Positions 25,657-42,437 of a stretch of 64,000 nucleotides of DNA are shown here, piece after piece. Position numbers and translations under genes: made by a program. A model generated the notes under the pieces. That model was not told the origin of the DNA. It did not search any database and was given only the letters and a program-made list of their open reading frames with translations. Every line of letters begins with the position of its first letter. The first letter of the stretch is position 1. Location of the stretch: contig JANRKS010000040.1 of assembly GCA_033763315.1 (NCBI GenBank), positions 96,001 through 160,000 on the forward strand. The letters run 5' to 3'. Origin of the DNA: Deltaproteobacteria bacterium. Lineage in GTDB: Bacteria; Myxococcota_A; Polyangia; Fen-1088.

Positions 25657-25837
25657 CGTTCCTCCACAACAGAAGTTAGGGCCTGACCGGCGCCGAAATT
25701 TGGCGCGCCTCATCGTACGCTCAGAATGGCCATCAATAAAGCGGATGGATGCGAAAGAGCGGCACACGTACACGCACATCGCCCACAAGGCAAGGCTTCA
25801 GTCGCCCGAGACTGCCCACGGCCGGGTGAAACGTTCT

Positions 25838-26213: not shown

Positions 26214-27908
26214 CTAGACCACCGTCACAGGCGCGAGCGCTTGCAGCCGCTCCCAAGCGCGCGCCAACACCGACTGCAGATCATCAAGTGAGAACGGCTT
26301 GCTGAGAAAATCGTTCATGCCTGCGTCAATGCAGGCTTGCCGATCTTCGCTGCGCGCGTTCGCAGTCAAGGCCACAACTTGCGTGGGCCGCGATTGACCT
26401 TCACGTTGGCGCAAAAGCCTGGTGGCCTGCATGCCATCAAGAACCGGCATCTGCACATCCATGAACACAACGTCGTAGGATTGCGCCTCCAAAGCACGCA
26501 AGGCTGCGGCGCCATCGTCGACGGCACGCGACGAATGCCCAAGCTTTTCCAAAAACAGCATCGCCAGGCGTTGGTTCACCGCATTGTCTTCCGCCACCAG
26601 GACGCGCAGCGGTGGTAAGACCAGCGCGCCCACCCCTGGGTTGGTTGCGGTGGCCATCAGCTTTGGCACGGTGGCGGCCGCAAAGCTGAACCGGAACGTG
26701 GCACCTTGGCCAAGCGCGCTTTGCACGCTGATGTCGCCGCCCATGCGCCTCGCCAGCTGCTGGGCGATCGCCAGCCCCAAACCCGAGCCACCGAAGCGAC
26801 GCGTGGTTGAGCTATCGGCTTGAACGAATGGCTCGAAGATCACGGCCTGTTTCTCGATCGCAATGCCGACGCCCGTATCCCTCACAGTGATCACAAGTCC
26901 AGCGGCCTCTGTGAACGCGCGCACGCTCACGCTTCCAACCACCGTGAATTTCAGGGCATTGCCGATGAGATTCGAAATCACCTGGCGCACGCGCAACGGG
27001 TCGCCCAAAACGGTCGAAGGCACGTCAGCGCTGACATCAAGGCTCAAATTGATTCCGCGACGAATGGCATCGGGTTTGAACAGCGACAGCACATTTCCCA
27101 GTTCTTCAGTCGGTGAAAACGCCACACTTTCAAGTTCGAGCTGCCCTGATTCGATGCGGGACGCGTCCAGAAGATCGTTGAGGATGCGAAGTAGGTAGGA
27201 GCCAGACTGCTTGATGGTTTGTAGGTACTCCCGAACTGTCGCCGAGGTGGGCTCCATCAAGGCCAACTCAGTCATGCCCAGCACACCGTTCATGGGCGTT
27301 CGAATTTCATGGCTGATGTTGGCGAGAAATTGCGCTTTCGCCGACAAAGCCGCCACCGCGGCTTCACGGCTACGCTCCAAGGCACACATAGCGTCCGCGC
27401 GAACGATCGCCGATGCCACGTGCGCACCCAGCAGCTCAAGCAAGGCGATGTCTTCCTCAGAGAACGGAAGAGGCTGCAACCGCGAGGCGCCCAGGGCCCC
27501 CACGATCGTATCACCTGCGCGCAAAGGAACAGACACGGTGGCATGCAGGCCCATGTGCCGCAGAGGCTGAAGAATTGGCTCCGTGCAATCGGGATCCTGC
27601 AGATTGTTGACGAGCAAAATTTCTCCCCGCACGATCACGCGCTCGATGATTGGGTTTGAAGCGGGCGACGCGCGTTTCACAAAAACGTCGCGCGCGTCAC
27701 CCCTGACCACCCGCAGCACCAAGTCCTCGCCTTCCAAAGTGCCCACGGTCGCGCGATCTGCCAACAGGAGGGCTAAAATCGCCTCGGCCACGTGGGGCAG
27801 CATCTCGTCGATCGAGCTCGCACGACTGATCCGAACCCCAAAATCATTCAAGAGTCGCAGGGACTCATTCGTGGTGCGCAATTCGCCTTGTGGCGGGGCC
27901 GGGGGCAT
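26214..27908 (-). CDS. GAF-HisKA-HATPase-REC hybrid histidine kinase
   Basis: GAF (SVPLRAGDTIVGAL), SHEIRTPMNG, NALKFT, GSGLGL, EDNAVNQ, DVQMPVLDG. Confidence 0.95.
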   Translation of the reverse strand: MPPAPPQGELRTTNESLRLLNDFGVRISRASSIDEMLPHVAEAILALLLADRATVGTLEGEDLVLRVVRGDARDVFVKRASPASNPIIERVIVRGEILLVNNLQDPDCTEPILQPLRHMGLHATVSVPLRAGDTIVGALGASRLQPLPFSEEDIALLELLGAHVASAIVRADAMCALERSREAAVAALSAKAQFLANISHEIRTPMNGVLGMTELALMEPTSATVREYLQTIKQSGSYLLRILNDLLDASRIESGQLELESVAFSPTEELGNVLSLFKPDAIRRGINLSLDVSADVPSTVLGDPLRVRQVISNLIGNALKFTVVGSVSVRAFTEAAGLVITVRDTGVGIAIEKQAVIFEPFVQADSSTTRRFGGSGLGLAIAQQLARRMGGDISVQSALGQGATFRFSFAAATVPKLMATATNPGVGALVLPPLRVLVAEDNAVNQRLAMLFLEKLGHSSRAVDDGAAALRALEAQSYDVVFMDVQMPVLDGMQATRLLRQREGQSRPTQVVALTANARSEDRQACIDAGMNDFLSKPFSLDDLQSVLARAWERLQALAPVTVV

Positions 27909-27983
27909 GCCCGACGACGATAACCCAGAATCTGCGTACTTAAAACATGTGGCGCGCCCATCGCGTCCGCTTATGCTGCGGCC

Positions 27984-29405
27984 ATGTTCACGCGCAAGCG
28001 TATGTATTCGCCCGTCGTGGGCCGTCCCATTGGCCTGACTTCACATGCCCCGCGGTGTTTGCAAGGAGCGTTTTGGCTAGGCATGGTCGTCTTCGTTTTT
28101 ACGCAGGTCCCTGCCGCTCGGGCGCAGACGGTCTGCCCTCCTGCAAGCAGCGACGCTTTTGCGTTTGCTTCCACGCAAAAACAAACGACCAGTTTGCAAT
28201 TGGAGCCACAGGGTCAAAACAGTCATCGCCTGCGCTGGCCGCAGGTGCCTGCCCTCACAGACAGTGGTCTGTTGTTCTTGAACCTTCGAAGCGAAGGCAC
28301 ATCAGCCCCGATGGTGCGGCTGACCCACGCGCAAACCACGTCCGTGCAGACCCTGAATCCCGGCGCGGCAGGCACGAGGGCCATCAACGTGTCCGCCTTT
28401 GCAGGTCTACAAGCGAACGATGAGATCGCCATCACGCTGACGAACGCCACGCTCACGTCTTCATCGGCAACTCTCATTGTGTTTGCCAACAGGCTGCCAC
28501 TGACGCGGCCCCTTCTGGTGGTGGCGCCTCACCCTGATGATGCCGAAATCGCGGCGTTTGGGCTTTATGCCGATCGCAAGACCACCGTTGTGACCGTCAC
28601 AGCGGGCAACGCCGGTGAATTTAACTACTGCCAAACCGAACCTGATCCCGCCGCGCATTACCGCTTGAAAGGCGAACTGCGAGCCATCGACAGCGTCACC
28701 GTGCCTTGGCAAGGCGGCGTCTCCGTGTTTCGTGCGTTCAACCTCGGCTATTTCGACGGCCGGCTCAAAGCAATGTTCGACGCACCGAAAGAGCCCGCCA
28801 AAGAGCTCTTCGTTGACAACGACGATGTGTGGCCGTATCGACGCATGAACCAAGCGGCCTTATTGCCGATCGCGAGGCGTAAAGCCACATGGAGCAACCT
28901 GGTCGCTGATTTGCGTGCCGTGTTGCGCAAGGTGCGGCCCGCGATTGTGGTGGCGCCCGATCCGCGCCTCGATCATCACAAGGATCACCAGATGACGACG
29001 GTGGCGCTGTGGCAAGCGCTACAGGCGACGAATTCGCGCCCCGTGATCCTGCTTTACAGCAACCACGCCGAGGCGGATCGTTTTCCGTGGGGTGGAAGCG
29101 GTGAAGATATGCCGCCCGTGCCTTGGTGTGGTCCACCTTTACAGGCGCTTGGGTTTTACGCGCATCCGTTGGATGCGGCCTTGCGAAAGCGCAAGCTGTT
29201 GGCGCTGGAATCGATGCACGACTTGCGGTTGCCGCCCGCGGGACAATACGATTTTCACGCCGCGGCTGATGACCGCTGCCAAACACGCCCCGGCCTTCCG
29301 TTGGCAGAAGACACGTACCTGCGTCGAGCGGTGCGAACGCACGAAGTTTTTCTCACCACTGACAAGCCAGGCTTGCAGGCTTTGGTGCAAGGGTTCCTTC
29401 AGTGA
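27984..29405 (+). CDS. PIG-L/LmbE family de-N-acetylase, probably exported
   Basis: APHPDDAE and DHHKDH metal-binding motifs; signal-like segment ending PAARAQ. True start may be further downstream. Confidence 0.85.
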   Translation: MFTRKRMYSPVVGRPIGLTSHAPRCLQGAFWLGMVVFVFTQVPAARAQTVCPPASSDAFAFASTQKQTTSLQLEPQGQNSHRLRWPQVPALTDSGLLFLNLRSEGTSAPMVRLTHAQTTSVQTLNPGAAGTRAINVSAFAGLQANDEIAITLTNATLTSSSATLIVFANRLPLTRPLLVVAPHPDDAEIAAFGLYADRKTTVVTVTAGNAGEFNYCQTEPDPAAHYRLKGELRAIDSVTVPWQGGVSVFRAFNLGYFDGRLKAMFDAPKEPAKELFVDNDDVWPYRRMNQAALLPIARRKATWSNLVADLRAVLRKVRPAIVVAPDPRLDHHKDHQMTTVALWQALQATNSRPVILLYSNHAEADRFPWGGSGEDMPPVPWCGPPLQALGFYAHPLDAALRKRKLLALESMHDLRLPPAGQYDFHAAADDRCQTRPGLPLAEDTYLRRAVRTHEVFLTTDKPGLQALVQGFLQ

Positions 29406-31615
29406 ACAAGCTGAAGTCGGCGTGGCCCCGGCTCGTTGCTGGCGTGGTCTTCTGCGGCTTGCTCACCGTTTTGGTGGCCATCACCAGCGTCACCGGCCGG
29501 GTGGCCGCCGCTTGGTATCGCCCCCCGGCCAACGCATCTCGAGCGCTGTGGTTTGCAGCCGCCTTGTGGCGCGACGTCGGCAGTGCCATGCCGGTCGCGG
29601 CCCTGCTCACCACCGTGTTGTTGATTCCCGTGCTGCTTGCCAACCGGCGGAACAGGATTCCCACGCGTGGCCTCGCGCTGGTGGCCATTGTTGCAGCGGC
29701 CACGATTTGGATCTCCGCGATCAGTTTCTGTGAATATTGGATCCAGCGCGGCTCCTTACCCGTGTGGCACGAGTTCATGGGGGGCATGGACGCGGCGTTC
29801 TTAAAGAGCGCGCTCGCCAATTTTCGGTACCCCCGGTATGTTTGGCCCGCGATCGTGGCGTGGCCGCTCATCGGCCTAACGATCCTGGCGGCCTTGCGTT
29901 GGGCAGCGCGCCGCGTGGCGGCGTTTCACAACGGCGGCTTCGTTGTGGGGTTCATGGCTTCGGCCGCATTGCTGTTCTTTTTCACGCACCCCGCACACAG
30001 CCCACCGCTGCCGTTGCCCAAAGCGCTGGTCGAAGCCGAAGGCGTCACGGATCCGTTCGGGCGCTTCTTCGGTAGCGCTTGGGCTGTGCTCACGGGTCAT
30101 TCCAGCGAGCCCAAGCAAATTCTGATCGAGGCGCAGATACCAGCGAACCTGCAGCCCGAAGGCGCTTCGCTGTTGGGATTGGGCTTTCATCCTTCTTCAG
30201 GCAGTTGCGCGCCACATCCGTTTTCGTCGCCGCTTGACCAAGCACCCTTGCCGGCCGTGAACGCGGCCCTGCAAGCGATCTCGCGTGAGCTGTTCACCAA
30301 CAACATCGGCAAGGATCTGTTGGTGTTTCACATTTCGCTCGAAAGCTTTCGGGGCGATGATATGGAAGCACTCAACCCTCGTGCACCGGCCGGGATCGCG
30401 CCGTTCTTCAACGGCCTTTATGCGCAAGCGGCCGCGGGCCAGGGCGGCGTGGTGGCTTCGCACAGCTTTTGGCAAGGCGGCGTGCGCACCTCGCAAGGCA
30501 TGTCGGCGTTCACGTGCGGCTTGGGGGCCTTGCCTTATGGCGTAAGCCTCGTTCGTGATCTCGGCCCTGTGCCTTTGCGTTGCCTATCAGATGTGCTTAC
30601 GGACGCGGGGTTTGGGCACACGTTCGTCTATGGTTCGCACCCTTCGTTCGATGGCATGTCGCCGTTTCTGCGTTACCACGGTTTCAGCAACTTCGTAACG
30701 CAAGACGAACTGCCAAAGCGGCTGCCGCTTGGTGAGTGGGACGCCGTATCCGATCTTGCCCTTTTCGATGAGGCCCTGCGCTTCGTGGAGCGGCAACCGC
30801 GAGCGCCTCTGTTCACACTGATGATGAGCCTCTCGAACCATTCGCCCTTCACGCCGCCGCAGGATTTGCCGCCGGTGATCAGGCCGCGGGTGAAGGCCGC
30901 GTTGGCCGCGAAGCCAAACCACGCGCGCCCCGAAGACGTTTCACGGCTTACCACGTACTCATACGCCGACTTCGCGTTGGCCGCGTTCTTCGAGAAGCTC
31001 TACGCCCATCATTTGGCCGAGCGCTCAATCGTGATCGTGCACGCCGATCACGCCACGGGTGAGCGTTACGTGTGGTCGCCCAAGCTCGGCCCCGAGTCGG
31101 AGACCGCCGAAGCCACCGCGCGCATTCCTTTTGCGATGGTGTTTCCGCCGCCGCTTGTGGCACGCGCCGCGCACCCAGTCGTGCTCACAGAACAAATTCG
31201 GCAAGCCAATGCACAAATCAATCTGGCGCCCACTTCACTCAACGATGTTCCACGTTGGGTGCTTGATTTGTTGTCGGCTCATCCAGGCCTTGCGCAGTTA
31301 GAACAGCCCTGGCGGTGGCACACGTTGGGAGGAATGACGTCGAGCACCTTGTTCGTCCCGCCGGCAGCGCACCCCGCACGGATCTATGGCATCAGCGGCA
31401 TCAATCAGTTGTTTTGGCTAAACGAGCGCGGCCAATTCATGAGTCCCGTGGAAGACGTTATGGCGGTCACCACGCAAGCCGAGGTGTTCGCTGCCACGCG
31501 GCCCCTATTTCCAGCGGCAGCGTTGTGGTCGGAGTTTCTGAAGGGCTACGCCAAGACCTGCCCTGACGAACGCCACATCCGCCGCATAGGAGCGCCCGCG
31601 AACGGCACCAAATGA
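29402..31615 (+). CDS. LTA synthase/MdoB-like membrane phosphotransferase (alkaline phosphatase superfamily)
   Basis: About 5 N-terminal TMs, SLESF, RTSQG catalytic Thr, SNHSPF, ADH. GTGA overlap with the PIG-L gene. Confidence 0.8.
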   Translation: MNKLKSAWPRLVAGVVFCGLLTVLVAITSVTGRVAAAWYRPPANASRALWFAAALWRDVGSAMPVAALLTTVLLIPVLLANRRNRIPTRGLALVAIVAAATIWISAISFCEYWIQRGSLPVWHEFMGGMDAAFLKSALANFRYPRYVWPAIVAWPLIGLTILAALRWAARRVAAFHNGGFVVGFMASAALLFFFTHPAHSPPLPLPKALVEAEGVTDPFGRFFGSAWAVLTGHSSEPKQILIEAQIPANLQPEGASLLGLGFHPSSGSCAPHPFSSPLDQAPLPAVNAALQAISRELFTNNIGKDLLVFHISLESFRGDDMEALNPRAPAGIAPFFNGLYAQAAAGQGGVVASHSFWQGGVRTSQGMSAFTCGLGALPYGVSLVRDLGPVPLRCLSDVLTDAGFGHTFVYGSHPSFDGMSPFLRYHGFSNFVTQDELPKRLPLGEWDAVSDLALFDEALRFVERQPRAPLFTLMMSLSNHSPFTPPQDLPPVIRPRVKAALAAKPNHARPEDVSRLTTYSYADFALAAFFEKLYAHHLAERSIVIVHADHATGERYVWSPKLGPESETAEATARIPFAMVFPPPLVARAAHPVVLTEQIRQANAQINLAPTSLNDVPRWVLDLLSAHPGLAQLEQPWRWHTLGGMTSSTLFVPPAAHPARIYGISGINQLFWLNERGQFMSPVEDVMAVTTQAEVFAATRPLFPAAALWSEFLKGYAKTCPDERHIRRIGAPANGTK

Positions 31616-31760
31616 ACCGCCGTTTGTTTCCGGAAAGCGGCCCCGCGGTGAGTTTTGCGCTGACATTCATAGCGCCCAAGGCGCTGAGAGGCGGTAAGTG
31701 GTTCTCGCTTGCCCGCCTGCTAGAGTGCGCCCGTTGGAACACCCGCCAAGATCACCACGC

Positions 31761-34700
31761 ATGACGCATCCCCGCCGCCACGTGAGCCGCCTTCTACCCC
31801 TTTACATTGCTTTGGTGTTGGCCGTGGTCAGCTCCGCGCGCGCGGCCGGTGGGCAACACCCAGACGCCGGTCCCGTGTGCGGCAATGAGTTGCGCCAACT
31901 CGAGGCCAAAGAGCAAAGCCTGCAAATCTGTTTGCGGCAACGCGCGGAGGTCGAACGCGGGGTGGCCGATTGTTCTGAGGACTTGGCCAAAGCGCAGCGC
32001 CAAACGCGCAACACGGCCGCTTTGCTTGAATCCACGAAAGATGAACGCGACGCCTTGTGCACAGCTTCGGGGGCTTTGGTGGCGTCGGTGCTCGACGCGC
32101 GCACGCCCCTGCCCGATCTCGGCAGTTGCACGTCGGAGGCGGCCGCGAATGGCCTGGAGCAACTGATTCATAGTTGGAACGAATCAAAGCTCGCGCTTTC
32201 GCAATTTGCCGGCTGGTCGTCCGGCGAAAGCGATTCGTTGCCGCGCGCGCCTGCTTTGGGCGTGGGAGCGTCGCCCGTTGTGCGACGCATTTTGGGTGGC
32301 GGACGCATCGATCCCCCCCTGCCCTACCGCCGTTTGTTGATCGAGGCCGTACGCCTCGTGGCGCCCAAACATTTGCGGCGCTTGCGCGCGGCAGGCAGCG
32401 CCACATTGGATGCGTGGTTTACGTCTTCGGCTGAACTTGAAGCGGCGTTTTTGACAGAGGCGCAGGCGGTGCTCGCCGCACGCGGCACGGGGCTCGGCCC
32501 AAGGCAAGCCGCGGCTTTGCGGTTTGTACAAAGCTTTCAGGATTTGGTGGGATGCGAAACGCACGCGTGGTTGCGCGAATGTCCGCGCGCCCGTCGTTTG
32601 CAGGCGTTTCTCGAAAGCAGCGCGCCTCTTATCGTGCGGCAACGCCTGCAGGAGATCTGGGTGCAGCCTTGCGCTGAAGTGCGCTCGAAGGTTGTGTTGT
32701 CATGGCTGCGTGAGCTCCCGTCGTCGCAAGTGTCCACCGGCGAAGCGGATTGGGATCAGATTATACAAACCGCGTACGACAAACTCGTGTCGTGCTACCT
32801 CGCCACCAATGGCCACGAACAGAAGTTTGCCGGTTGGTTTGCCGAGCGCCTGCCACAAGCGCATGTGCTCACAACCACGGGCCTGCATGATGTGGATGCC
32901 TTGCGCGCCAAGTGGGTGTCGACCAGCGCCGAAGCGGCCTGCCTTGAAACTGTGAACGCGCTACGCACATTGCAAACGCCCACGCGCTGCGCGTTGCCGG
33001 AGATGGTGGCCGAACCACTGCGGCGTTGGTTTGGTCGCGCGTCCACCGCGGCAGCGGGCGCGGATGGAACTGTGGCGCAGGCCTGCGCTCACTACGTTCG
33101 TGCCTTGTGGGACGGCAACGAAGCACGCGTGCTTGGTTCATACCCTGGCCCGCCCACAGCGGCGGCCTTGGTGCGCGTGGATCGCGAAACAGCGTTTCGC
33201 CCCATCAAGAGTTTGCGCGTGTTGTGCGACACCCGCGTGGGCGCCCCGCAGGAGTTTGTAAACGACATGCGCCGCGTGGGGGCCGTGGCTCGCGCCGCCG
33301 GCGAAGATCTCACCGAGATGCCTTGGCGTTTAAGCAACGAGGCCGAGGCCCCTGAAGAAGCCGCACGTTATCAGCAGGCATCTTCCATCGTGTCGTGGGT
33401 CGCGCGGCGCGTGCGTGGTGAAGAGCCGTGCGACGCTTTGGGCTTGGGCGCTCAAACGTGCAAGGCCTGTGAACAGGATGGTCAAAACAGCCGCTACGAT
33501 TGCGGCCTCTTGGCGTCGCTCACCGCCCGATGGTCTCGCTTTAACAACATCACGTTCGGCTTGGGCGGCCTCTTGTTGGCGCTCATCGTTCTGCTGGTGT
33601 GGAGCTTACGTTTGGCGCGCGCGTGGGCCGCGTACGGTCCTTGGCGGCGCGAACTGCGCGGCCACCTCGAAAGCATGGGACTGCCAGTGGCGCCCGACGC
33701 GCGCCGCTTGTTGTGGCCATCGCGTATGGGCACGTTGTTGGTGAACTTGCCACCCGGGCCCGCGTGGGAACGCTGGGGCACAGCCGCCGTCATCACTCGT
33801 GCCGAAAAAGGCGCTGCGGTCAGCTCACGCGATGTCACACGCGCCGCTTTGAGCGCCCGTTCGCAAGGCGCAGAGCTGGCGATGTTGTGCCATCAGGAAG
33901 GCGCCGCCCCCGATTTATCGGCGGTGCGCGCGATCTTGGATTGGGCGGCACGCGGGCCGCACAAGGCGATGCAGATCTTGCCCATCTCCGTCGAGCGCTT
34001 GCGCTGGATCCGCACGCCCGAAGATCTTTTGGATCTGATCGAGCAAACATCCTTGCGCGGCAACCCCTTCGAGGTGCGCGGGCGTCTCGTGTCTTCGAGC
34101 CAATTTTTCAACCGTGAACGTTTGGTTTCAGGCTTGATCTCGGCGTGCGAGGCTGGCCATTGGACCATCGTCACGGGCTTGCGCCGGTTCGGCAAATCAT
34201 CGTTGGCGCTGGAGGTCGCGCGACGTTTGCAAGGCGCTTATGCCTACGTTGACTTGGCCGGCTTTCACCATGAAGTGTCGTCGTCAAGCGACGCGTCTCG
34301 CGTGGCCGACGGCATCTTACGATACGTGTGCGAGCAATTCCACGGCTCGGCCCAGAAGGTTCATCAGGCCACGGATCTTCCGCCCGTTCCACAAACCGGC
34401 GACTCACTTGACGCCGGTGCCCTTTCGGTGTGGATGCGCGACATGGTCAGCGCATGCCGCAAAGCCAGCGGTGGCCGTCCTGTCACGTTGCTCTTAATCC
34501 TTGATGAGGTGGAACAAGCGATAGGCGTGGGCCCGCAGCGCATCGCAAACGCGCTGGACGTGGTGTCGGTGTTGGTGGGCCGTTTGCGTGCGGTTCTGAA
34601 CAACGCGCAGTTGTCCCAAGGCGGCGACAAAGTGGGCGTATTGTTCTGCAGCGCCTTGCACCCGTTGTTGTGGGCGCCCCTCTCAACGCTCTCGAACCAA

Positions 34701-35339
34701 TCGTTATTGGGTGCTTTTCCCAGCGTGTTTGTGCCACGTCTACCGCAAGAAGCCGCGCAGGCGATGATGCGTGGTCTGGGCGCGCGCCAAGGCGTTCGCT
34801 TCACGGACGCGGCGTTGGACTTGATCATCCGCGAAGCGCAAGGCATTCCGATCTTGGTGCGCCGCATGGGCTCTGCCGTCTTGGAGCTCTACGATCCCGA
34901 ACGCGCGCGGCAAGGCAGTTTGGGCGCCGTGGAAATCGGCATCGAAGGCGCCAGCGCCGCGGTTCGTCGCGAAGAAGAAGATGGAGCGCCGCTGCGCGTG
35001 TGGGTGGAATCGGAGATTGGCGATGCGCACAACCCCGCCGGCGTGTTGTTGCGGGCCTTAGCCGTGGCGGGGCGCATGCCGGTGGAGGATTTGCGCCGCA
35101 CCGCCGCGCAAGTCACGAAGGAACAGTTCGTCGATTCGGGCATTGCCGCCTTGTTGAGCCCCGAAGAAACCGCACGCCGCGCGGCCGAAGCCGCTGGATA
35201 CATCGTGCGCATGTTGGGCGAAATTGGCATCCTTGTACCCGAAGGCGACGAGACACAACCCGAGGCTTATTCGTTTCCCGAGTCCTTGGTTCGCCGCATT
35301 TTAGCCACGCCTCGACGCGATTCGCTGATGGGATTTTGA
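31761..35339 (+). CDS. Single-pass membrane protein: Cys-rich extracytoplasmic region plus cytoplasmic STAND-like ATPase
   Basis: Signal peptide, coiled coil, TM at about 33549-33608, NPFEVRG..FFNRE, Walker A GLRRFGKSS, Walker B LLILDEVE, GIPILVR. Confidence 0.8.
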   Translation: MTHPRRHVSRLLPLYIALVLAVVSSARAAGGQHPDAGPVCGNELRQLEAKEQSLQICLRQRAEVERGVADCSEDLAKAQRQTRNTAALLESTKDERDALCTASGALVASVLDARTPLPDLGSCTSEAAANGLEQLIHSWNESKLALSQFAGWSSGESDSLPRAPALGVGASPVVRRILGGGRIDPPLPYRRLLIEAVRLVAPKHLRRLRAAGSATLDAWFTSSAELEAAFLTEAQAVLAARGTGLGPRQAAALRFVQSFQDLVGCETHAWLRECPRARRLQAFLESSAPLIVRQRLQEIWVQPCAEVRSKVVLSWLRELPSSQVSTGEADWDQIIQTAYDKLVSCYLATNGHEQKFAGWFAERLPQAHVLTTTGLHDVDALRAKWVSTSAEAACLETVNALRTLQTPTRCALPEMVAEPLRRWFGRASTAAAGADGTVAQACAHYVRALWDGNEARVLGSYPGPPTAAALVRVDRETAFRPIKSLRVLCDTRVGAPQEFVNDMRRVGAVARAAGEDLTEMPWRLSNEAEAPEEAARYQQASSIVSWVARRVRGEEPCDALGLGAQTCKACEQDGQNSRYDCGLLASLTARWSRFNNITFGLGGLLLALIVLLVWSLRLARAWAAYGPWRRELRGHLESMGLPVAPDARRLLWPSRMGTLLVNLPPGPAWERWGTAAVITRAEKGAAVSSRDVTRAALSARSQGAELAMLCHQEGAAPDLSAVRAILDWAARGPHKAMQILPISVERLRWIRTPEDLLDLIEQTSLRGNPFEVRGRLVSSSQFFNRERLVSGLISACEAGHWTIVTGLRRFGKSSLALEVARRLQGAYAYVDLAGFHHEVSSSSDASRVADGILRYVCEQFHGSAQKVHQATDLPPVPQTGDSLDAGALSVWMRDMVSACRKASGGRPVTLLLILDEVEQAIGVGPQRIANALDVVSVLVGRLRAVLNNAQLSQGGDKVGVLFCSALHPLLWAPLSTLSNQSLLGAFPSVFVPRLPQEAAQAMMRGLGARQGVRFTDAALDLIIREAQGIPILVRRMGSAVLELYDPERARQGSLGAVEIGIEGASAAVRREEEDGAPLRVWVESEIGDAHNPAGVLLRALAVAGRMPVEDLRRTAAQVTKEQFVDSGIAALLSPEETARRAAEAAGYIVRMLGEIGILVPEGDETQPEAYSFPESLVRRILATPRRDSLMGF

Positions 35340-35344
35340 TCGCC

Positions 35345-36469
35345 ATGCAATACACAACACAAAGCTTGGCAGCCAACGATCCCCGCTGGGTCGATCGACA
35401 ACCCGGTGTGGCCGAGATTGAACGCATGTTCCCTTCGCCCGTGGCTGAGGGCAAAGGCCGCAAAGCGGTCGAGGGTGGGGTGTCGGTGGTCGCGGGCCCA
35501 GGCATGGGCAAAACCAGTTTGCTCGCGCAACTGGCCGCGAAGCTGCATCGCGATCGACGACTCATCACAGCACAGATCACAATTCCGGATGTCGGCTCAT
35601 ATGCGGACGAAGCGGGTTTCTACGCCTTCTTAGGCGAGATCGTCTTGCGGACGCGGCAATCACTTCTGCAAGCCATGCAAGGCATCACACCGCCGGCCGC
35701 ACAAGACGCTTCGTACAACGAAATCCACGCCGCTTTGCAACTTGAGCCTTCGTGGGATGTGCCTGAAACCCAGGCCATGACACCACGGGGCTTCGAACGT
35801 TTCATCGCCACGCTGGCGCAAGCCGCCTTGCACACGCCTGGTATTTGCTTGTTGTTCGATGACGTTGATAAAGTGGCGACGGCGCCTTGGAAGGGGCCGT
35901 TCATTTCGGCCCTCCGTTTCGTGTTCCAGGCCTCGTCCGGCATCACGCCCATCTACGCCCTGTGGACGCTGTTCGGCGATGAATCGCTGCCGGGCTCAAA
36001 CTATTTTCGCAACGTCACCCGTCCGGTGTTTCTTGAACCGCTATCGGCCGATGCATCAACACCGGGCTCGCGTTTCGAGCTGGTCGCTGTCGGCTTTCCC
36101 GAATTGGTGCCTAGCACACGCCTCGCCATCTCGCGTTTGGTCGGTGGGCACCCGCTGTTGTTGCAAAAGTTCTTGGCCGATCTGGCTCAACGTGTGCCTG
36201 ACGTCGACGCGCGCGCACAGCTGGGGCCGGAACACTTGGCAGCGGCCCTGGGCCCTGATGCGGTGGCAGAGCAACAGCAGCTCGTGGCAACGTTGCTGTC
36301 GATGTCAGCGCGCCTTGGCACCGCCTTGGCCGATCTTGAAGGCAAGGGCTTGCCTTACGCCAGTTTGCCGCGCGGTTTGGTGGCCTCGGGTTTTGTCGAC
36401 AAAGACGACGAGGGCTTCGCAACACTCATAGAGCGCGCGCGCGAGGTGCTGTTGCCGGGCACGCCTTAA
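35345..36469 (+). CDS. AAA_35-like/STAND P-loop ATPase
   Basis: YTTQSLAANDPRWVDR, Walker A GPGMGKTS, Walker B LLFDDVD, GGHPLL. ATG is 5 bp after the upstream stop. Confidence 0.8.
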   Translation: MQYTTQSLAANDPRWVDRQPGVAEIERMFPSPVAEGKGRKAVEGGVSVVAGPGMGKTSLLAQLAAKLHRDRRLITAQITIPDVGSYADEAGFYAFLGEIVLRTRQSLLQAMQGITPPAAQDASYNEIHAALQLEPSWDVPETQAMTPRGFERFIATLAQAALHTPGICLLFDDVDKVATAPWKGPFISALRFVFQASSGITPIYALWTLFGDESLPGSNYFRNVTRPVFLEPLSADASTPGSRFELVAVGFPELVPSTRLAISRLVGGHPLLLQKFLADLAQRVPDVDARAQLGPEHLAAALGPDAVAEQQQLVATLLSMSARLGTALADLEGKGLPYASLPRGLVASGFVDKDDEGFATLIERAREVLLPGTP

Positions 36470-37764
36470 CGCGTACCCCACTTTTCTTCGCGAACCGTGA
36501 TGATGGCGTACGGCAAGATCCAGGTCAGGCCGAGAAACGAAAACAGCGCATAGACGGCGCCCCACAGGAACCGCAGACCCTTTTGCGCGCGCAAGTAGTA
36601 AAGCGAAGCGAGGGCCGCCATCACAGCCCCGGCGGTCAGGCCCGCTGCCAACTGGGCCGGCCGGCGCAGCACGGCGCCCGGCAAAGCCACCAAACCCACG
36701 AACACGTAAATCAAGCGGAAGCTGCTGGTGAAAAACCCAAGGATCGGAAACAGGCGGTTGCCGGGACGGTATTTCGTGAACATGAACTTCGCGAAGGAGA
36801 AGCCTTCCACGACGTAGCTGCGATCCCATCGCGTCAACATGCGCGTGAGCTGCTTATAAGTTTGCGGCACCAACGTCCACACCACGGCGTTACGCTGGTA
36901 AACGGTTTCGTAACCGGCCTTCAAAACGATGTTCGTCAGTGCCTGATCTTCGCCATGGCCCACCGGGCGACCCAAGAACGATTGGTTTACCCATTCGTCC
37001 ATGTGCGGCAAGATCACCGCGCGGCGAAACGCCGAAAGCGCGCCAGGGCAAACGAACACAGCGCCGAAGGTCGACTGAGCGGCCCGCGACAGATCGAAGC
37101 TCAGTGTGAATTGAACGTCCAACATGCGGCCAATCAGGTATTGCGCGTTTAGCACCCGCACCCAACCAGCCACACCCGCCACGCGTGGGTTGGCAAACGG
37201 GGCCGCCAAGGCACGCAGCGTGTGAGGCTCTATCTCGCTGTCTGAATCGATCGTAATCACGATGTCACCACGCGCGCTCTCGAAGCCTGTACGCAGGGCC
37301 GCGCGCTTGCCTTGGTTGCCGCGGAACCGAATCAGCCGCACCACTTTCGGATAGATCTTGCGCAGCTTTTCCATGTGGAAAAACGTGTCGTCCCTAGAGC
37401 CGTCGTCCACCACAAGAATTTCAAGCTTGTCGTGAGGGTAATCGGCCTTCGCCACCGAGCGGATGCTTTGTTCAACCATCGGGCCTTCGTTGTAGGCGGG
37501 GATGATCACGGTCAGGATAGGCAGCTCCTCGTCAGGTGGCAGGGCCACGGGCCTGTATCTGAGCCACAGCGTGGTCACAAAGCACAGATGCAGGAATTCA
37601 AGCGTCACCAGGATCAAGATCGGAGACGACAAGAGCAACCGCGCTAGGCCAGCGGCACCCAGGTGCACGTTGGGCAAAAACACCAAGGCCAGCCCCAAGG
37701 CGGCCCCAAGCAACGGACACAACCCCAACAGGCGCTTGGGCAGGGGTTCAACGGGTTCCAACAT
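36466..37764 (-). CDS. Processive GT2 glycosyltransferase (hyaluronan synthase/NodC-like)
   Basis: IPAYNE, DDGS, GKR, DSDS, CPGALSAFR, GEDQ, MLTRW at the QxxRW position; flanking TMs. Confidence 0.9.
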   Translation of the reverse strand: MLEPVEPLPKRLLGLCPLLGAALGLALVFLPNVHLGAAGLARLLLSSPILILVTLEFLHLCFVTTLWLRYRPVALPPDEELPILTVIIPAYNEGPMVEQSIRSVAKADYPHDKLEILVVDDGSRDDTFFHMEKLRKIYPKVVRLIRFRGNQGKRAALRTGFESARGDIVITIDSDSEIEPHTLRALAAPFANPRVAGVAGWVRVLNAQYLIGRMLDVQFTLSFDLSRAAQSTFGAVFVCPGALSAFRRAVILPHMDEWVNQSFLGRPVGHGEDQALTNIVLKAGYETVYQRNAVVWTLVPQTYKQLTRMLTRWDRSYVVEGFSFAKFMFTKYRPGNRLFPILGFFTSSFRLIYVFVGLVALPGAVLRRPAQLAAGLTAGAVMAALASLYYLRAQKGLRFLWGAVYALFSFLGLTWILPYAIITVREEKWGTR

Positions 37765-37875
37765 ACGGCATGCATACAACGAACACGGCCACGTGCGTGA
37801 GAAACCATGCACTTTTGCGGTCCCGCAGCCCGCCGCGTCGCGGGTGCACAGCCAGCGGCCCGGCGGGGCACGGGG

Positions 37876-39822
37876 TCAGTTGGGTGTCACGGCAAACGTC
37901 TGTGGGAACGAAACATACGTCTTGCCCGCCAGGGTTAACTGCGCTGTCAAGGCATGAACACCTTGGCTGAGGTCTGCATAACGGAACACGAGCGGCGCAT
38001 CGCCAGGCATGAAGGTGTGAACCAAGTTGGCAAAGTCGTAAATCTCGATTTTGCTCCAGGCCGCCATACTTGGCAGAACGCGCACCACAGCGTCGCGCGC
38101 CTCACCCACCTTCGCGTCATAGATCGGCGTGATGTGCACGGCACGCCTGTATGAACCATAAGCGGCCGCAACGTACGCGGTGGCCTTGTCGAGCAGCCAG
38201 CCTGTTTTGGAGGCATCGCCTGTAAAGCCCGCCGCGGGGAAGATCTGCGCCATCGTGGAGGGTTTTTGTTTGTCGGCGTCGTCGCCGCTTAAGGTCTGCA
38301 CCAAGAACGCTTTGTTTTCATCCACCGGCAACAACGGCAAAGCGCCTTGCGGGCTGCGCGCTTGCAGAGCGCGCGCGAAGAACGGCAGATAAAGCGCGTA
38401 TGACCCAAGTTCAAGGTGGCTGAACCGCTCCTTGGCAAAGAAGGCCTGGTGTGCGCCTTGCCCACGGGTGCTTTCGAGCGATTGCACCAAATCACTGACT
38501 GCAACGAGATCAACCGAATCACCGCACGTAAAGATGCTCGGAATGGCGCGGGCGGCGCCAGCAGACACTTGCGCTGGCATCGCGTATGCGTCCGCCACGA
38601 AGGCCACAACGCGCGACGCAAACTGGTTCGCAAACCGCGTGGCCCACACCGATCCGGCGGAAAAGCCATAAACCACGATCGGCACCGTGTTGAGCTCGGG
38701 GTGGTTGGACGCGTTGGCCAACTGTCGCAGACCCGCTTCAACCAGCGTTGGCGATTGATTCGTCACGTGTGCCAACACGGCCAAGTCATAAGCCCGGGCA
38801 AAGTTTGCAAGGTATTCCCGCGCGTCCCACACGCCGTTGGAATCGCCACAACATCCTGGAGATTCGATATAGATGCCTTTGACCTTTTGCACGCCAGGAG
38901 GGATCCACACATGCACGGGATCGCTGGTTGAAAACGTCATCGCCGGCTCTTTGGGCGGATCGCCGGCCACGCGCCTGATCTGAAAGTCGTCGATCACCAG
39001 CGGGGCGGAGCGATCCGCGTAGCCGCCAAAGGCAATTTCGCCCGAGGTTTTCGTCAACACAAACTCGGCGTCGCCACGCAGGACCAATCGATCTCGATCG
39101 TAGGCGCTTGCCACCGCCCGCACAACGCCAGGCCGTGCCAACGTCAGCGTCACGCGGAACTCGTAAAAGCGCTCGTCATTGATCATGGGCGTCAACGTCA
39201 CCAACGACTTTGGCTCAGGTTGCATGGCCAGCAGAGCACGGCTGCTTTCCAAATCACTGCCCTGCGCGAAAACAAACCCGTCATTGCCGGTTTCGCTCCA
39301 ATTGAATGTGATGCGTGGCGCTTGTTTGCGACCGCTTTGCGGAAAGAACGCGATCCATGCCTTTGGAAGAACGCTGGGGGCCAGGGCGGGCGACGGCACG
39401 ATCGGGGTGCTGTTGGATTGCACCCGCATCGAAACCACCAAAGGTCCGGATGCGAGATCGAAAGAATCGCTGGGCGTGCCATCAGGTGTGGAATCAACGA
39501 TCGCCGTGTGTTGGGTGAACGACTTCACTTGCAGCGCACCATCGGCAACGGTCAGGTGTGTTGTCGGTTCATCCACAACCACCTTTTTAAGATCGGTGGG
39601 CGAGTCGAACGTCAGATGCACGAGCACAGTGGGATCGGGCGGCGGCCCCTTGTCGGGAACATACGCGTCTTCGGCGGACGCATCTGCCGCCGGCCCTGGC
39701 GAGCCACCTCCATCACCGCCCGTGCCTCCGTCCACACCAGAGCCACCGCTGGCGCCCTCATCACCAGCACCTGAACAGGCGCTAAGCAAAGCGCAAACCA
39801 GCAGACAGCGGCTTTTCGTCAT
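37876..39822 (-). CDS. Lipoprotein with beta-sandwich region and alpha/beta-hydrolase domain
   Basis: LSAC lipobox, ELNTVPIVVYGFSAGS nucleophile elbow. Confidence 0.7.
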   Translation of the reverse strand: MTKSRCLLVCALLSACSGAGDEGASGGSGVDGGTGGDGGGSPGPAADASAEDAYVPDKGPPPDPTVLVHLTFDSPTDLKKVVVDEPTTHLTVADGALQVKSFTQHTAIVDSTPDGTPSDSFDLASGPLVVSMRVQSNSTPIVPSPALAPSVLPKAWIAFFPQSGRKQAPRITFNWSETGNDGFVFAQGSDLESSRALLAMQPEPKSLVTLTPMINDERFYEFRVTLTLARPGVVRAVASAYDRDRLVLRGDAEFVLTKTSGEIAFGGYADRSAPLVIDDFQIRRVAGDPPKEPAMTFSTSDPVHVWIPPGVQKVKGIYIESPGCCGDSNGVWDAREYLANFARAYDLAVLAHVTNQSPTLVEAGLRQLANASNHPELNTVPIVVYGFSAGSVWATRFANQFASRVVAFVADAYAMPAQVSAGAARAIPSIFTCGDSVDLVAVSDLVQSLESTRGQGAHQAFFAKERFSHLELGSYALYLPFFARALQARSPQGALPLLPVDENKAFLVQTLSGDDADKQKPSTMAQIFPAAGFTGDASKTGWLLDKATAYVAAAYGSYRRAVHITPIYDAKVGEARDAVVRVLPSMAAWSKIEIYDFANLVHTFMPGDAPLVFRYADLSQGVHALTAQLTLAGKTYVSFPQTFAVTPN

Positions 39823-39831
39823 GGTTCACCT

Positions 39832-41001
39832 TTACTTCGTGATGGTGGAACCAGAGACCTGTGGTGCGCCTTTGGCCTTCACGAATATGCCGGGATAGCC
39901 TTCGGTGTCGAAGCCTTTGTTGGGGTTGCCCGTCAACACGGAATCCTTGATGATCAGTGAGCCCGTGCTGTTGTTGCTGACAAAGAAGATGGCGCCGCCG
40001 CCTTCGTTGGCGCTGTTGTCGTGGATGGCAACGCCACACAGTGAAAGCGTAAATTCATTGCCGTCGTTGTAGATTGCCCCGCCATTGCCGCCACCCAAGT
40101 TGCCCGACGGCGGCGGTTCCATGCCGATGGCCTGGTTGTGGGAAAAAGCGCTATTGATCACCGTGAACGACACGCCCAACCCGCTGATGCCCCCACCGTT
40201 TGAACAAACATTCCCAAGTTTGTTGCCTGCTTTGTCTTCCCCTCCAAACGTGCTGTTGACGAAGTACGCGGGTTTGCCTTGAAACTGTGATTGCACGCGC
40301 ACGGCACCGCCGCCCAAATCGGGCGCGGCATCGATGCATATGTTGCGAAAGAAGCGTGAGTTCAAAATCTTCAGCCGTCCCCCCCGCACGAACACGGCAC
40401 CGCCACTTGGTTCGGGCTGTTGCCCCTTCGCGTTGCCATCGATGAACGTGAGGTTCTGCAGCGTCAGCTGCGGTGAATCCTGATCTTGGCAGTGATCGGT
40501 TGTGTACTTTTGCGCGGGGTCGCAGGTGTTTTGATACAGAATCCGCACCTTGCCACCACCACTCAAGGTGATCTTGGACCCACCATCGATAACGATCTTG
40601 GGGCCTGTGTCGTTCACGATCTTTGCAGTGCGATCCAGCACAATGGTCTTGGGCTCAGGCCCGCACGAAAACGTGATCACGCCCCCTTTGGCCACGGCAT
40701 TCACGAACGCCTCAGAGGTGCAGCTTTGCGGCGTGCCATCGCCCACCACCGTCCGCGGGTTGCTTACGTTTTCGAGCGCCGCTTCGCTGGGCACCGCACA
40801 CTTACCTGCAGGGTTACCCGCCGCAGGACCATCTTGGGCCGCATTCGTGGAGCCGCCGATCCCGATAGAGCCACCGGATGAGTTTACGGCCGATCCGGCC
40901 ATGCCCCCCGTCATGGCCATACCGCCAGCCTTGTCATCTGACGAAGAGCCACCGCAAGCCCCCCACGCCACCGCAGCCGCAAGCAAACACCAAGATTTCA
41001 T
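39832..41001 (-). CDS. Lipoprotein with GGAI/FxxN beta-helix (pectin-lyase-like) repeats
   Basis: WGAC lipobox, GGVITFSCG, repeated GGAV/GGAI and FxxN motifs. Confidence 0.8.
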   Translation of the reverse strand: MKSWCLLAAAVAWGACGGSSSDDKAGGMAMTGGMAGSAVNSSGGSIGIGGSTNAAQDGPAAGNPAGKCAVPSEAALENVSNPRTVVGDGTPQSCTSEAFVNAVAKGGVITFSCGPEPKTIVLDRTAKIVNDTGPKIVIDGGSKITLSGGGKVRILYQNTCDPAQKYTTDHCQDQDSPQLTLQNLTFIDGNAKGQQPEPSGGAVFVRGGRLKILNSRFFRNICIDAAPDLGGGAVRVQSQFQGKPAYFVNSTFGGEDKAGNKLGNVCSNGGGISGLGVSFTVINSAFSHNQAIGMEPPPSGNLGGGNGGAIYNDGNEFTLSLCGVAIHDNSANEGGGAIFFVSNNSTGSLIIKDSVLTGNPNKGFDTEGYPGIFVKAKGAPQVSGSTITK

Positions 41002-41033
41002 GCACTCAAAATACACGAAGTCGCACGGGCGCT

Positions 41034-42437
41034 CTAGACAAAGGCCTTGGGTTGGCCCGTGGCTTCGATGACCGACATCCACAGATCGTCGGTGGGATCC
41101 ACGCGCTTTTGGCTACGCGTCGCCAACTCCATGGGCACATGCACAAAACGGCCATGCCATCGGCCGATGAGCATTTCCGTGTTGCCCGCCATCGCGGCAT
41201 GAACGGCGTTGCGCGCCATATTCCAGCAGAACACGCTGTCCGAAGGTGAAGCAGGCACGCTTCTGATTGTGTAGCTGGGATCAATGTACTTCAAGGTGAC
41301 CTCGCGTCCCGCACTCTTGAAGTGGTTGGTGATGCGATCCCGCAGAAACACGCCCACGTCCTTAAGACGCGCGTTGCCGCTTTTGTCTGACAACTCGGAA
41401 CGTTCCGCATCCGCGATTAGCTCTTGCGCCGCCCCTTCGGCCACAACCACCACAGCGTGGCCTTGCCGATCCAGAACACGCTCAAGGCAGCGATAGACCC
41501 CGCGTTCACCCTCCAGATGCGCTGGCACTTCCGGAATCAACACCAGATCCACATCAGTGCTGGCCAGGGCCGCATAGCAAGCCACGAAGCCCGAGTGGCG
41601 GCCCATCAGCTTCACGAGACCAATGCCGTTGCGGGCACCCGTGGCCTCCACGCGCGCGGCGCGAATCACTTCAACGGCCGCCGAGAACGCGCTTTCAAAC
41701 CCGAAGCTGCGATCGATGAAGTGGATGTCGTTGTCGATGGTCTTCGGCACGCCCACAACGGCGATTGCGGCGCCCCGACGGGCGATCTCCGCGGTCAGCT
41801 GCATGGCCCCGCGGATCGTCCCATCGCCACCCACCACGAACAGAACATTGATGCCCCACGCCTGAAGGTTGTCGACGACTTCGCTCGGGTTCTGCGACCC
41901 ACGCGACGATCCCAAAATCGTACCGCCTTCATGGTGGATGTGCGCCACCGATTGCGGTGTCAGATGCAAAGGCGCCTGCCCCAACCGCGAGACCATGCCT
42001 TCGTACCCGTATCGAAAGCCCATGATGTGGCGCACGCCATAGCCGCCGGCCATCTCAAGCACCAGCCCCCGAACCACGTTGTTGAGGCCAGGACACAAAC
42101 CGCCACACGTGACAATCCCACAGCGAACCGTCCGCGGATCAAAGAAGATCTTGTTGCGGGGGCCCGCCAATTCGAACGCGGGCAAATCTGCCAGGGCGTG
42201 CGCCCCCACCTGCGACAACACGTCATTGACCAGCACTTTGTCGGCCTCGCCCACGTAGTGCATCGCGGTCTCTCCCAGATGAGTGGCCACCGGCGAGGCG
42301 AAGTTGCATTTGCCTAAGTCTTTGATGGCGACGTCGGCGCGTGTGATCCGCCCCGCCAAACCGGGGGGACCTTGCACCTTCACCACATCCGGAACCGTTA
42401 ACGAAGAGGGCGATGAAGCCGGGCCATCAGAAGGCAT
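41034..42437 (-). CDS. pfkA: ATP-dependent 6-phosphofructokinase (group X type)
   Basis: TCGGLCPGLN, GGTILGSSRG, GGDGT, PKTIDND, MGRHSG, KYIDPSY. Confidence 0.93.
   Translation of the reverse strand: MPSDGPASSPSSLTVPDVVKVQGPPGLAGRITRADVAIKDLGKCNFASPVATHLGETAMHYVGEADKVLVNDVLSQVGAHALADLPAFELAGPRNKIFFDPRTVRCGIVTCGGLCPGLNNVVRGLVLEMAGGYGVRHIMGFRYGYEGMVSRLGQAPLHLTPQSVAHIHHEGGTILGSSRGSQNPSEVVDNLQAWGINVLFVVGGDGTIRGAMQLTAEIARRGAAIAVVGVPKTIDNDIHFIDRSFGFESAFSAAVEVIRAARVEATGARNGIGLVKLMGRHSGFVACYAALASTDVDLVLIPEVPAHLEGERGVYRCLERVLDRQGHAVVVVAEGAAQELIADAERSELSDKSGNARLKDVGVFLRDRITNHFKSAGREVTLKYIDPSYTIRSVPASPSDSVFCWNMARNAVHAAMAGNTEMLIGRWHGRFVHVPMELATRSQKRVDPTDDLWMSVIEATGQPKAFV

Follow-up and report, generated by a model that had tools for sequence, protein, structure and literature searches.

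Soluble switches of the STAND and Orc-like ATPase types are known to act in immunity, cell death and transcription, and the GxP motif is a hallmark of the STAND nucleoside triphosphatases (NTPases). Gene A, the subject of this report, encodes an ATPase of this kind behind a membrane anchor in soil myxobacteria. It lies in a 64,000-nucleotide stretch of the genome of a Deltaproteobacteria bacterium (Myxococcota_A, Polyangia; GenBank assembly GCA_033763315.1, contig JANRKS010000040.1, positions 96,001 to 160,000), here called the window, within which all coordinates are given. Among the closest described proteins are the sugar-responsive STAND ATPases MalT and, from mycobacteria, IniR. In both, as in A, a P-loop NTPase is followed by a GxP-bearing helical lid and then by a winged helix, but both are soluble proteins with a helical-repeat sensor at the C-terminus and a helix-turn-helix (HTH) of the LuxR type, and they act on promoters. 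A, by contrast, has neither a repeat sensor nor an HTH, and its candidate sensor lies beyond the membrane, outside the cell. IniR is described as an SSO1545-like signal-transduction ATPase that responds to trehalose and controls envelope genes, with an ATPase modelled on SSO1545, which is also the top structural match of A (PMC5760070).

The second comparison is with polysaccharide synthases. Like PgaABCD and NodC/NodB, the locus combines a membrane-bound family-2 glycosyltransferase (GT2) related to PgaC and NodC with an exported, lipoprotein-type de-N-acetylase, and an inner-membrane partner is encoded in direct linkage with the synthase; the comparison draws on what PgaB and PgaD do in the poly-N-acetylglucosamine (PNAG) system. 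The Pga partner is a small protein with two transmembrane helices, whereas A is a 1192-residue ATPase receptor. The conserved genomic partner of A is the GT2, to which it is genetically linked, and not the second ATPase gene, B, which follows A in the window. The modules themselves are known (STAND/Orc-like ATPase and NodC-like GT2) but their topology and partnership are undescribed; searches of the full-text literature, supplementary files excluded, found neither the A family nor any STAND-like transmembrane protein partnering a GT2 synthase described.

Gene A (31761-35339, + strand) encodes a type-I membrane protein of 1192 amino acid residues, with an ATG at 31761 and a stop codon at 35337-35339. 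An in-frame GTG at 31698 would lengthen the protein by 21 codons (open reading frame 31698-35339), and the ATG is preferred because the homologues of A begin near it. From the N-terminus the protein consists of a signal peptide, a coiled coil, a helical cysteine-rich ectodomain, a transmembrane helix, an alpha/beta domain, an Orc/STAND-like P-loop ATPase and a winged helix. A Kyte-Doolittle scan finds two hydrophobic segments, at residues 7-30 (ending in ARA/AG) and 594-624. The first has the n-, h- and c-region layout of a signal peptide, assigned to residues 1-30 (31761-31850; basic n-region, hydrophobic core, ARA/AG), and the second contains the single transmembrane helix, approximately residues 597-616 (33549-33608), which in the predicted structure is part of a longer helix spanning residues 579-638. 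In 118 homologues of 1100-1260 residues, an N-terminal hydrophobic 12-mer is present in 108 and a mid-protein transmembrane segment in 112. The cysteines are unevenly distributed, with 17 in the ectodomain versus 5 in the cytosolic half, and 13 of the ectodomain cysteines are invariant in 113 sequences while 3 more are conserved at 90% or above. The signal peptide and single transmembrane helix, the bias of the cysteines towards the ectodomain and the need of the ATPase for cytosolic ATP together argue for an N-out/C-in topology. An earlier note, made from the letters of the DNA alone, had described a receptor-like protein of about 1190 residues with this series of parts as far as the ATPase and a single transmembrane segment; the reading frame, the hydropathy, the predicted structure and the survey of 118 homologues all agree with that description.

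A full-length model of A was predicted with AlphaFold2 from 113 sequences, with a mean predicted local distance difference test score (pLDDT) of 85.7 and a predicted template-modelling score of 0.47, and a second model, of residues 38-770, from 64 sequences (pLDDT 87.8). After the signal peptide the model has a long, coiled-coil-like periplasmic helix of 72 residues (residues 40-111; 31878-32093), and a profile of A compared with PDB sequences gave only coiled-coil matches of the tropomyosin/GCN4 type (E 0.005). This helix is followed by the cysteine-rich ectodomain (residues 112-575; 32094-33485), which is all-helical in the model to approximately residue 572. The ectodomain has no match in Pfam, NCBIfam, PDB sequences or PDB folds (E<=1e-3) and no usable match in the ESM Atlas, so that its earlier description as a domain of no recognised family stands. 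The model of residues 38-770 likewise gave 0 matches to PDB folds at E<=1e-3. Its best fold matches include the RPB5 N-domain (E 6.4e-3; template-modelling score on the target 0.36) and, at rank 45, AspBHI; the matched range of the query was not printed, and both are assigned to the alpha/beta domain because this is the sole non-helical part of the query. The only fold hints for the ectodomain are low-probability ones to helical scaffolds such as 14-3-3, Nup85, Exo70 and VPS35.

The cytosolic juxtamembrane domain (residues 640-763; 33678-34049) is predicted to be a four-stranded alpha/beta domain. The RPB5 N-domain has a restriction-endonuclease-like fold, and residues 640-763 of A may tentatively be described as restriction-endonuclease-like on the basis of the model. 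Comparison of the homologues revealed no conserved D...(D/E)xK triad, lysine or ExK in this domain, where the only polar residues conserved at 90% or above are R655, H711, R723, R746, D755 and E761, and it is not called a nuclease because the D...(D/E)xK signature is lacking. Searches of the ESM Atlas with residues 636-790 returned unnamed clusters only, with scores of 0.90 or below. The domain is joined to the ATPase by a linker (residues 764-786, SLRGNPFEVRGR...QFFNRE; 34050-34118), which is the most conserved segment of A and is predicted to be disordered, pLDDT falling below 50 at residues 767-782. The median identity of the homologues to the window protein is 24% in the coiled coil, 33% in the ectodomain, 49% in the alpha/beta domain and 56% in the ATPase versus 83% in the linker; the cytosolic half is much better conserved than the ectodomain. 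The pattern of the linker is typical of a short binding motif, making it a candidate for binding a partner or for contact between protomers.

The P-loop ATPase begins at approximately residue 783 and, with the winged helix, extends to the end of the protein (34119-35336); by motifs, fold matches and model it resembles the PF01637, Orc1-Cdc6 and STAND modules. Walker A (G806-L815, GLRRFGKSSL) and Walker B (LILDE, with D915 and E916) are invariant in the 113 sequences and the GxP of the lid (G1028, P1030) is conserved at 90% or above, which bears out the earlier report of intact motifs. In the model a winged-helix-like domain (residues 1090-1185) follows further helices, and the protein ends directly afterwards. 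Pfam finds neither a cytosolic repeat-type sensor (TPR, WD40, LRR etc.) nor an HTH family in A, in keeping with the earlier view of a STAND-like ATPase without repeats. The Pfam matches of the window protein are below threshold (ATPase_2, 19.6 bits with a cut-off of 33.2; AAA_16, 19.3 bits with a cut-off of 32.6) and NCBIfam gives none, while PF13191 is listed among the precomputed annotations of many homologues.

A Foldseek comparison of the whole model with the PDB placed SSO1545 first (2fna; E 4e-8, template-modelling score on the target 0.53) and PABY2304 second (2qen; E 1.5e-6, 0.57); further matches are Orc1/Cdc6 bound to origin DNA (2qby, 2v1u), CED-4 and the plant resistosome NLRs (NRC). 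SSO1545 and PABY2304 are archaeal ATPases of PF01637, and an RRFGKS-type Walker A is common to A and the DUF1703 family, in which, as described in PMC1913061, a PF01637-like AAA+ module is linked to a restriction-endonuclease-like domain. Unlike A, the PF01637 and DUF1703 proteins are soluble, lacking a signal peptide, an ectodomain and a transmembrane helix, and the order of the domains differs, the alpha/beta domain preceding the ATPase in A. As for a soluble or split homologue of the cytosolic module, 55 shorter matches were considered and nearly all are fragments of the same family with identities of 50% or more (the weakest 38%), many of them on contigs of a few kb; none looks like a separate soluble protein.

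The A family comprises at least 266 full-length proteins (E<=0.001; 7995 candidates scored), labelled as Myxococcota. Among the matches listed (120), the relatives are 1020-1334 residues long, with 40-74% identity and 83-100% query coverage, and the names given include Pendulispora, Labilithrix, Polyangiaceae and Myxococcales; the database labels are 'hypothetical' or 'ATP-binding protein'. Between deep clades A retains 40-50% identity over its whole length, and it is single-copy in the genomes examined. It was found in 11 of 61 genomes in a sample of one family around one carrier, in 3 of 61 relatives of the window genome, namely the three genomes of the window's genus, and in 1 of 401 genomes of a sample of the phylum in which two candidates per genome were scored. 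No match to A was found in 72,556 plasmids and 50,697 phage records. In one congener the copy of A (L004/L005, G001:C11) switches frame near residue 1017 and was matched as two parts, residues 27-1017 and 1018-1192, owing either to a frameshift or to an error of assembly.

The gene for the NodC/PgaC-like GT2, which is assigned by Pfam and NCBIfam and has transmembrane segments, is at 36466-37812 on the - strand of the window, with a probable start at Met17 (37764). Its linkage to A was assessed in 80 A loci from a scan of one genome per species, all labelled as myxobacterial or generic, by tblastn with the neighbours in the window. A GT2 orthologue (52-83% identity) adjoins A in 65 of the 80. 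In eight of the 15 loci without a match the sequence ends within 3 kb downstream of A, and in five of those eight (L024, L030, L071, L077 and L081) within 600 bp. In all five genomes tested in which A has no GT2 within 8 kb, a single GT2 orthologue (53-56% identity) is present elsewhere. The same co-inheritance is seen in the two samples of 61 genomes. In the first, the genomes with a GT2 orthologue (E<=1e-143, 52-55% identity) are precisely the 11 with A, and three further genomes have only a paralogue of 40-41% identity; among the relatives of the window genome, a GT2 of 82-83% identity is restricted, like A, to the 3 genomes of the window's genus. The two genes are co-directional in 37 loci and convergent in 23, showing that the linkage has survived rearrangement. 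In 18 of the 37 co-directional loci the stop codon of A overlaps the start of the GT2 gene by 4 nucleotides, and this overlap suggests roughly matched production of the two proteins.

The best NCBIfam match of the GT2 is to NodC (4.1e-50), aligned over profile positions 44-394 of 395, followed by PgaC/IcaA (1.4e-37). The motifs DDGSRDD, DSD, ED and RW are invariant in 60 orthologues. The C-terminal tail of the family is also near-invariant, with the sequence RDERWGTR (REEKWGTR in the window, 36469-36492; REEGWGTR in L006).

Two further genes for putative glycan-modifying enzymes precede A on the same strand. The first (27984-29405, +) encodes a PIG-L/LmbE-family de-N-acetylase (Pfam PIG-L) with a signal-peptide-like N-terminus; the gene is present in 16 of the 80 A loci with the window protein as the query and in 33 with that of L016. 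Lipobox-type signal peptides occur in four PIG-L neighbours from other loci, and the signal or lipoprotein peptides of the PIG-L proteins make an extracytoplasmic site of de-N-acetylation likely. The lipoprotein PgaB likewise de-N-acetylates PNAG outside the cytoplasm. The second gene (29402-31615, +), of which relatives were found by tblastn in 30 of the 80 loci, encodes a membrane protein with five N-terminal transmembrane segments and a domain of the sulfatase superfamily (Pfam Sulfatase; weak similarity to NCBIfam LtaS/OpgB, approximately 5e-5). The locus has some of the components of a synthase-dependent exopolysaccharide system of the Pga, Bcs, Alg or Pel type, namely an inner-membrane GT2 with transmembrane segments and exported modifying enzymes (PIG-L proteins with signal or lipoprotein peptides and the sulfatase-type protein with five transmembrane segments). 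In a genome without A, a GT2 relative of 42% identity is directly preceded by a gene for a PIG-L lipoprotein (L088, G042:C26, 7037-9656, -). The occurrence of this pair suggests that GT2 and PIG-L are the older core, to which A was added in some lineages.

Gene B (35345-36469, +) starts with an ATG at 35345, leaving a gap of 5 bp after the stop codon of A, as the earlier note had observed, and encodes a soluble NTPase of 374 residues with a GGHP lid motif and no hydrophobic segments in the Kyte-Doolittle scan. It passes the Pfam threshold for AAA_16 (33.9 bits, cut-off 32.6; E 5.5e-8, residues 40-182). The AAA_35-like N-terminus proposed for it earlier did not hold, since the match to AAA_35 is marginal (13 bits, cut-off 27; E 0.044) and covers only residues 262-283. 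Pfam finds no effector or adaptor domain in B. The family is small, with 42 clusters (41-85% identity) and, of 1.84 billion representatives searched, 16 at E<=1e-30; in 9 of the 42 the Walker A lysine is replaced by arginine and in 4 the second acidic residue of Walker B is N, A or G, the window copy being intact.

B does co-occur with A elsewhere, as had been anticipated, in 5 of the 80 A loci (L006, L007, L012, L015 and L079) and in both congeners of the window's genus, and wherever its context is visible the order is always A-B-GT2. Several further B matches lie on contigs equal in length to those of the closest A matches. It is, however, missing from the other 75 loci, which does not support the idea that the two ATPases form a functional unit. 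In a tree of 63 full-length A sequences and the window protein (FastTree, midpoint-rooted) the loci with B form one clade, within which L059 is nested but lacks B. The best reading of B is as a later, clade-specific auxiliary insertion between A and the GT2. A recent duplication of the ATPase of A is rejected as the origin of B: B has no BLASTP match to A, its next-best relatives among the 1.84 billion representatives are generic AAA_35/nSTAND1 proteins and not members of the A family, and hhalign of B residues 55-288 with A residues 798-1040 is collinear but weak (E 6.8e-4, probability 27%). The B profile against PDB sequences gives only P-loop noise (E>=0.078).

The explanation that we favour, if tentatively, is that A is the transmembrane nucleotide-switch partner of an undescribed synthase module for an exported glycan containing N-acetylglucosamine (GlcNAc). 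The module would consist of the inner-membrane NodC/PgaC-like GT2, the exported lipoprotein-type PIG-L de-N-acetylase, often a periplasm-facing LtaS/OpgB-like transferase, and A, and would both synthesise and modify the glycan. In the mechanism that we infer, modelled by analogy with MalT and IniR, the periplasmic part of A would be a disulphide-stabilised helical domain with a long coiled coil, and its cytoplasmic part a STAND/Orc-like nucleotide switch. The periplasmic state, whether the nascent glycan, the way in which it is modified, or a cue from the envelope or from contact, would pass through the single transmembrane helix and set the ADP/ATP state of the ATPase and hence its oligomerisation. 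The assembled cytosolic module would then activate or organise the GT2, probably through the linker and the juxtamembrane alpha/beta domain, and B, an effector-less AAA_35/nSTAND1-like NTPase added later in one clade, would probably tune the switch. The outside-in sensing that the earlier note had proposed for contact, kin or phage detection would possibly serve as control of a glycan synthase and not as an immune trigger.

Several observations weigh against this reading. The GT2 is below the equivalog cut-offs of both NCBIfam models (NodC, 170.9 versus 550 bits; PgaC_IcaA, 129.6 versus 422.3 bits) and has EDQ in place of EDR and M-x-x-RW in place of the Q(Q/R)xRW of NodC and chitin synthases. 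According to PMC4132801, NodC and chitin-synthase-type processive GT2 enzymes have the motifs D, DxD, EDR and Q(Q/R)xRW, and NodC is inactivated by mutation of EDR and Q(Q/R)xRW residues. Because the cut-offs are missed and these motifs deviate, the enzyme is labelled 'NodC/PgaC-like' and its product is left unassigned. Two other features set the locus apart from PgaABCD, as the deacetylase is of the PIG-L/LmbE family and not CE4, and a Pfam search of the neighbours reveals no PgaA-like porin. More generally, no outer-membrane porin or TPR exporter and no cyclic di-GMP receptor was recognised by Pfam among the neighbours in the window or related loci, although divergent forms could escape such a search. 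The positive-inside bias across the transmembrane helix of A is weak, with a median of 4 lysine and arginine residues before it versus 5 after it in the 118 homologues. The patchy distribution of the module in all three genome samples also fits an accessory or conflict function, and the nearest distant relatives of B, judged by sequence, are NTPases fused to TIR, SIR2, CHAT and EAD domains. Finally, the mechanism depends on a physical contact between A and the GT2 that we infer.

The coupling of the A and GT2 genes fits equally well with a structural role, in which A would be an energised co-polymerase or export scaffold: its P-loop domain would drive the formation of a ring, its periplasmic domain and coiled coil would steer the polymer and provide docking sites for the deacetylase and transferase, and ATP would be used for assembly or export and not for signalling. 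The 72-residue periplasmic helix, the all-helical ectodomain with its hints of scaffold folds and the export of the modifying enzymes to the compartment of the ectodomain are all consistent with this. Such an arrangement has a precedent in the polysaccharide co-polymerase Wzc (PCP-2a), which has a helical periplasmic domain, a membrane anchor and an oligomerising cytosolic P-loop domain, and is encoded with polysaccharide genes. Wzc, however, is a component of Wzx/Wzy pathways with two transmembrane helices and a tyrosine kinase domain of the MinD-like type, whereas A has a single transmembrane helix behind a signal peptide, an ATPase of the STAND/Orc switch type and not of the MinD or bacterial tyrosine-kinase type, and a GT2 of the synthase type. 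The rapid evolution of the ectodomain (median identity 33%, 24% in the coil) suits a ligand-facing sensor at least equally, and Pfam recognises no outer-membrane partner in the cluster. A scaffold is an unlikely explanation of A. Regulation of the glycan genes by direct DNA binding, with A as a membrane-tethered regulator that responds to a periplasmic signal in the manner of ToxR or MalT, is less probable still. It would account for DNA-bound Orc1/Cdc6 (2qby, 2v1u) being among the top fold matches, for the terminal winged helix and for the weak resemblance of the alpha/beta domain to proteins of the restriction-endonuclease fold, and there are parallels in the fusion of PF01637-like ATPases to domains of that fold, with a Walker A of RPRRFGKS in DUF1703 versus GLRRFGKSS in A (PMC1913061), and in IniR and MalT as STAND-type regulators (PMC5760070). 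A winged helix, however, is integral to every STAND/Orc module and alone is no sign of DNA binding, Pfam detects no HTH family, and the alpha/beta domain has no conserved nuclease or DNA-binding signature. The 4-nucleotide overlap in 18 of the 37 co-directional loci is also more in keeping with two subunits of one complex than with a regulator acting on its target.

The remaining alternative, raised by the earlier note, is that A and B act together in conflict or defence as an outside-in sensing module, in which the ectodomain would detect phage, kin or contact and oligomerisation of the STAND domain would activate an effector, either the restriction-endonuclease-like domain or a recruit of B. 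The joining of a receptor-like topology to a STAND-like switch and the patchy distribution of A are in favour of this. So is the kinship of B, as beyond its own family the B profile matches AAA_35/nSTAND1-type NTPases fused to TIR, SIR2, EAD2 and EAD7+CHAT (E 3e-11 to 1e-6), a class described for conflict systems (PMC7159879); B differs from these in having no effector or adaptor, in its tiny family and in always lying between A and the GT2. A further parallel is Tmn, a phage-defence protein described in PMC13001434 as a YobI-family NTPase, which like A is a transmembrane P-loop NTPase; A differs in its large exported ectodomain and its context of glycan genes. A search of PADLOC-DB 2.0 gave no real match for either protein. 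The hit of A is to PDC-S01 (E 0.0016) over only a 44-residue stretch at the P-loop and that of B is to GajB (E 0.00099) over 19 residues, also the P-loop only, and there is nothing for eight of nine neighbours. No nuclease triad is conserved in A, no effector domain is found in B, and B is absent from 75 of the 80 A loci. Because the PADLOC results, the lack of plasmid and phage matches, the single copy of A and its full-length conservation across deep clades in co-inheritance with a glycosyltransferase outweigh the patchiness and the kinship of B, a defence role is considered quite improbable.

Returning to A as a switch coupled to glycan synthesis, a STAND-type switch placed behind a signal peptide, an exported domain and a single transmembrane helix, and co-inherited with a GT2, suggests a new form of coupling between the outside and glycan synthesis in Gram-negative cells. 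It also points to an undescribed set of GlcNAc-glycan genes (GT2, exported PIG-L deacetylase and LtaS-like transferase) in a phylum in which surface polysaccharides play a central part in motility, development and predation. A stronger version of the hypothesis would make A the first STAND-type switch to act across a membrane, with the disulphide-rich domain reading the state of a GlcNAc glycan or a surface or contact cue, and with ATP-dependent oligomerisation directly gating the synthase; together with the lipoprotein PIG-L deacetylase and the LtaS-like transferase it would make up a previously unrecognised synthase-dependent glycan system of the Myxococcota. This version is possible but somewhat unlikely; if true, an ATPase receptor would fill the place of the cyclic di-GMP receptors in the Pga, Bcs, Alg and Pel systems. 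The hypothesis is directly testable because cultivable carriers of A exist, namely Labilithrix luteola DSM 27648 (locus L016) and Pendulispora species.

Other genes were observed near A. A protein of approximately 600-640 residues with 12-13 hydrophobic segments, unmatched in Pfam, is encoded beside the module of A and the GT2 in 25 of the 80 loci (for example L016:14471-16396, -, and L010:6094-7905, +) and may be a further membrane component of the glycan pathway. In the window, the two open reading frames beyond the GT2 (37876-39822, -, 648 residues; 39832-41082, -, 416 residues) have lipoprotein-like N-termini; neither has a Pfam, NCBIfam or PADLOC match, tblastn found them in 0 of the 80 related loci, and the 648-residue protein has no similarity to the 641-residue membrane protein that follows the GT2 in L016. 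A scan of 27500-40500 for promoters and terminators gave fewer sites than shuffled sequence. The ninth neighbour in the PADLOC search (42531-43811, -) is a two-HKD protein of the phospholipase D (PLD) family (PLDc_2, 7e-41), and its weak match to DrmC (2.6e-10) probably reflects general similarity among PLD proteins. Just upstream of the cluster are genes for a cysteine-rich repeat protein with DUF4215/MopE motifs (24238-25788, -) and for a hybrid kinase with GAF, HisKA, HATPase and receiver domains (26214-27908, -). Hybrid-kinase-like matches of low identity (25-36%) are present in 8 of the 80 related loci.

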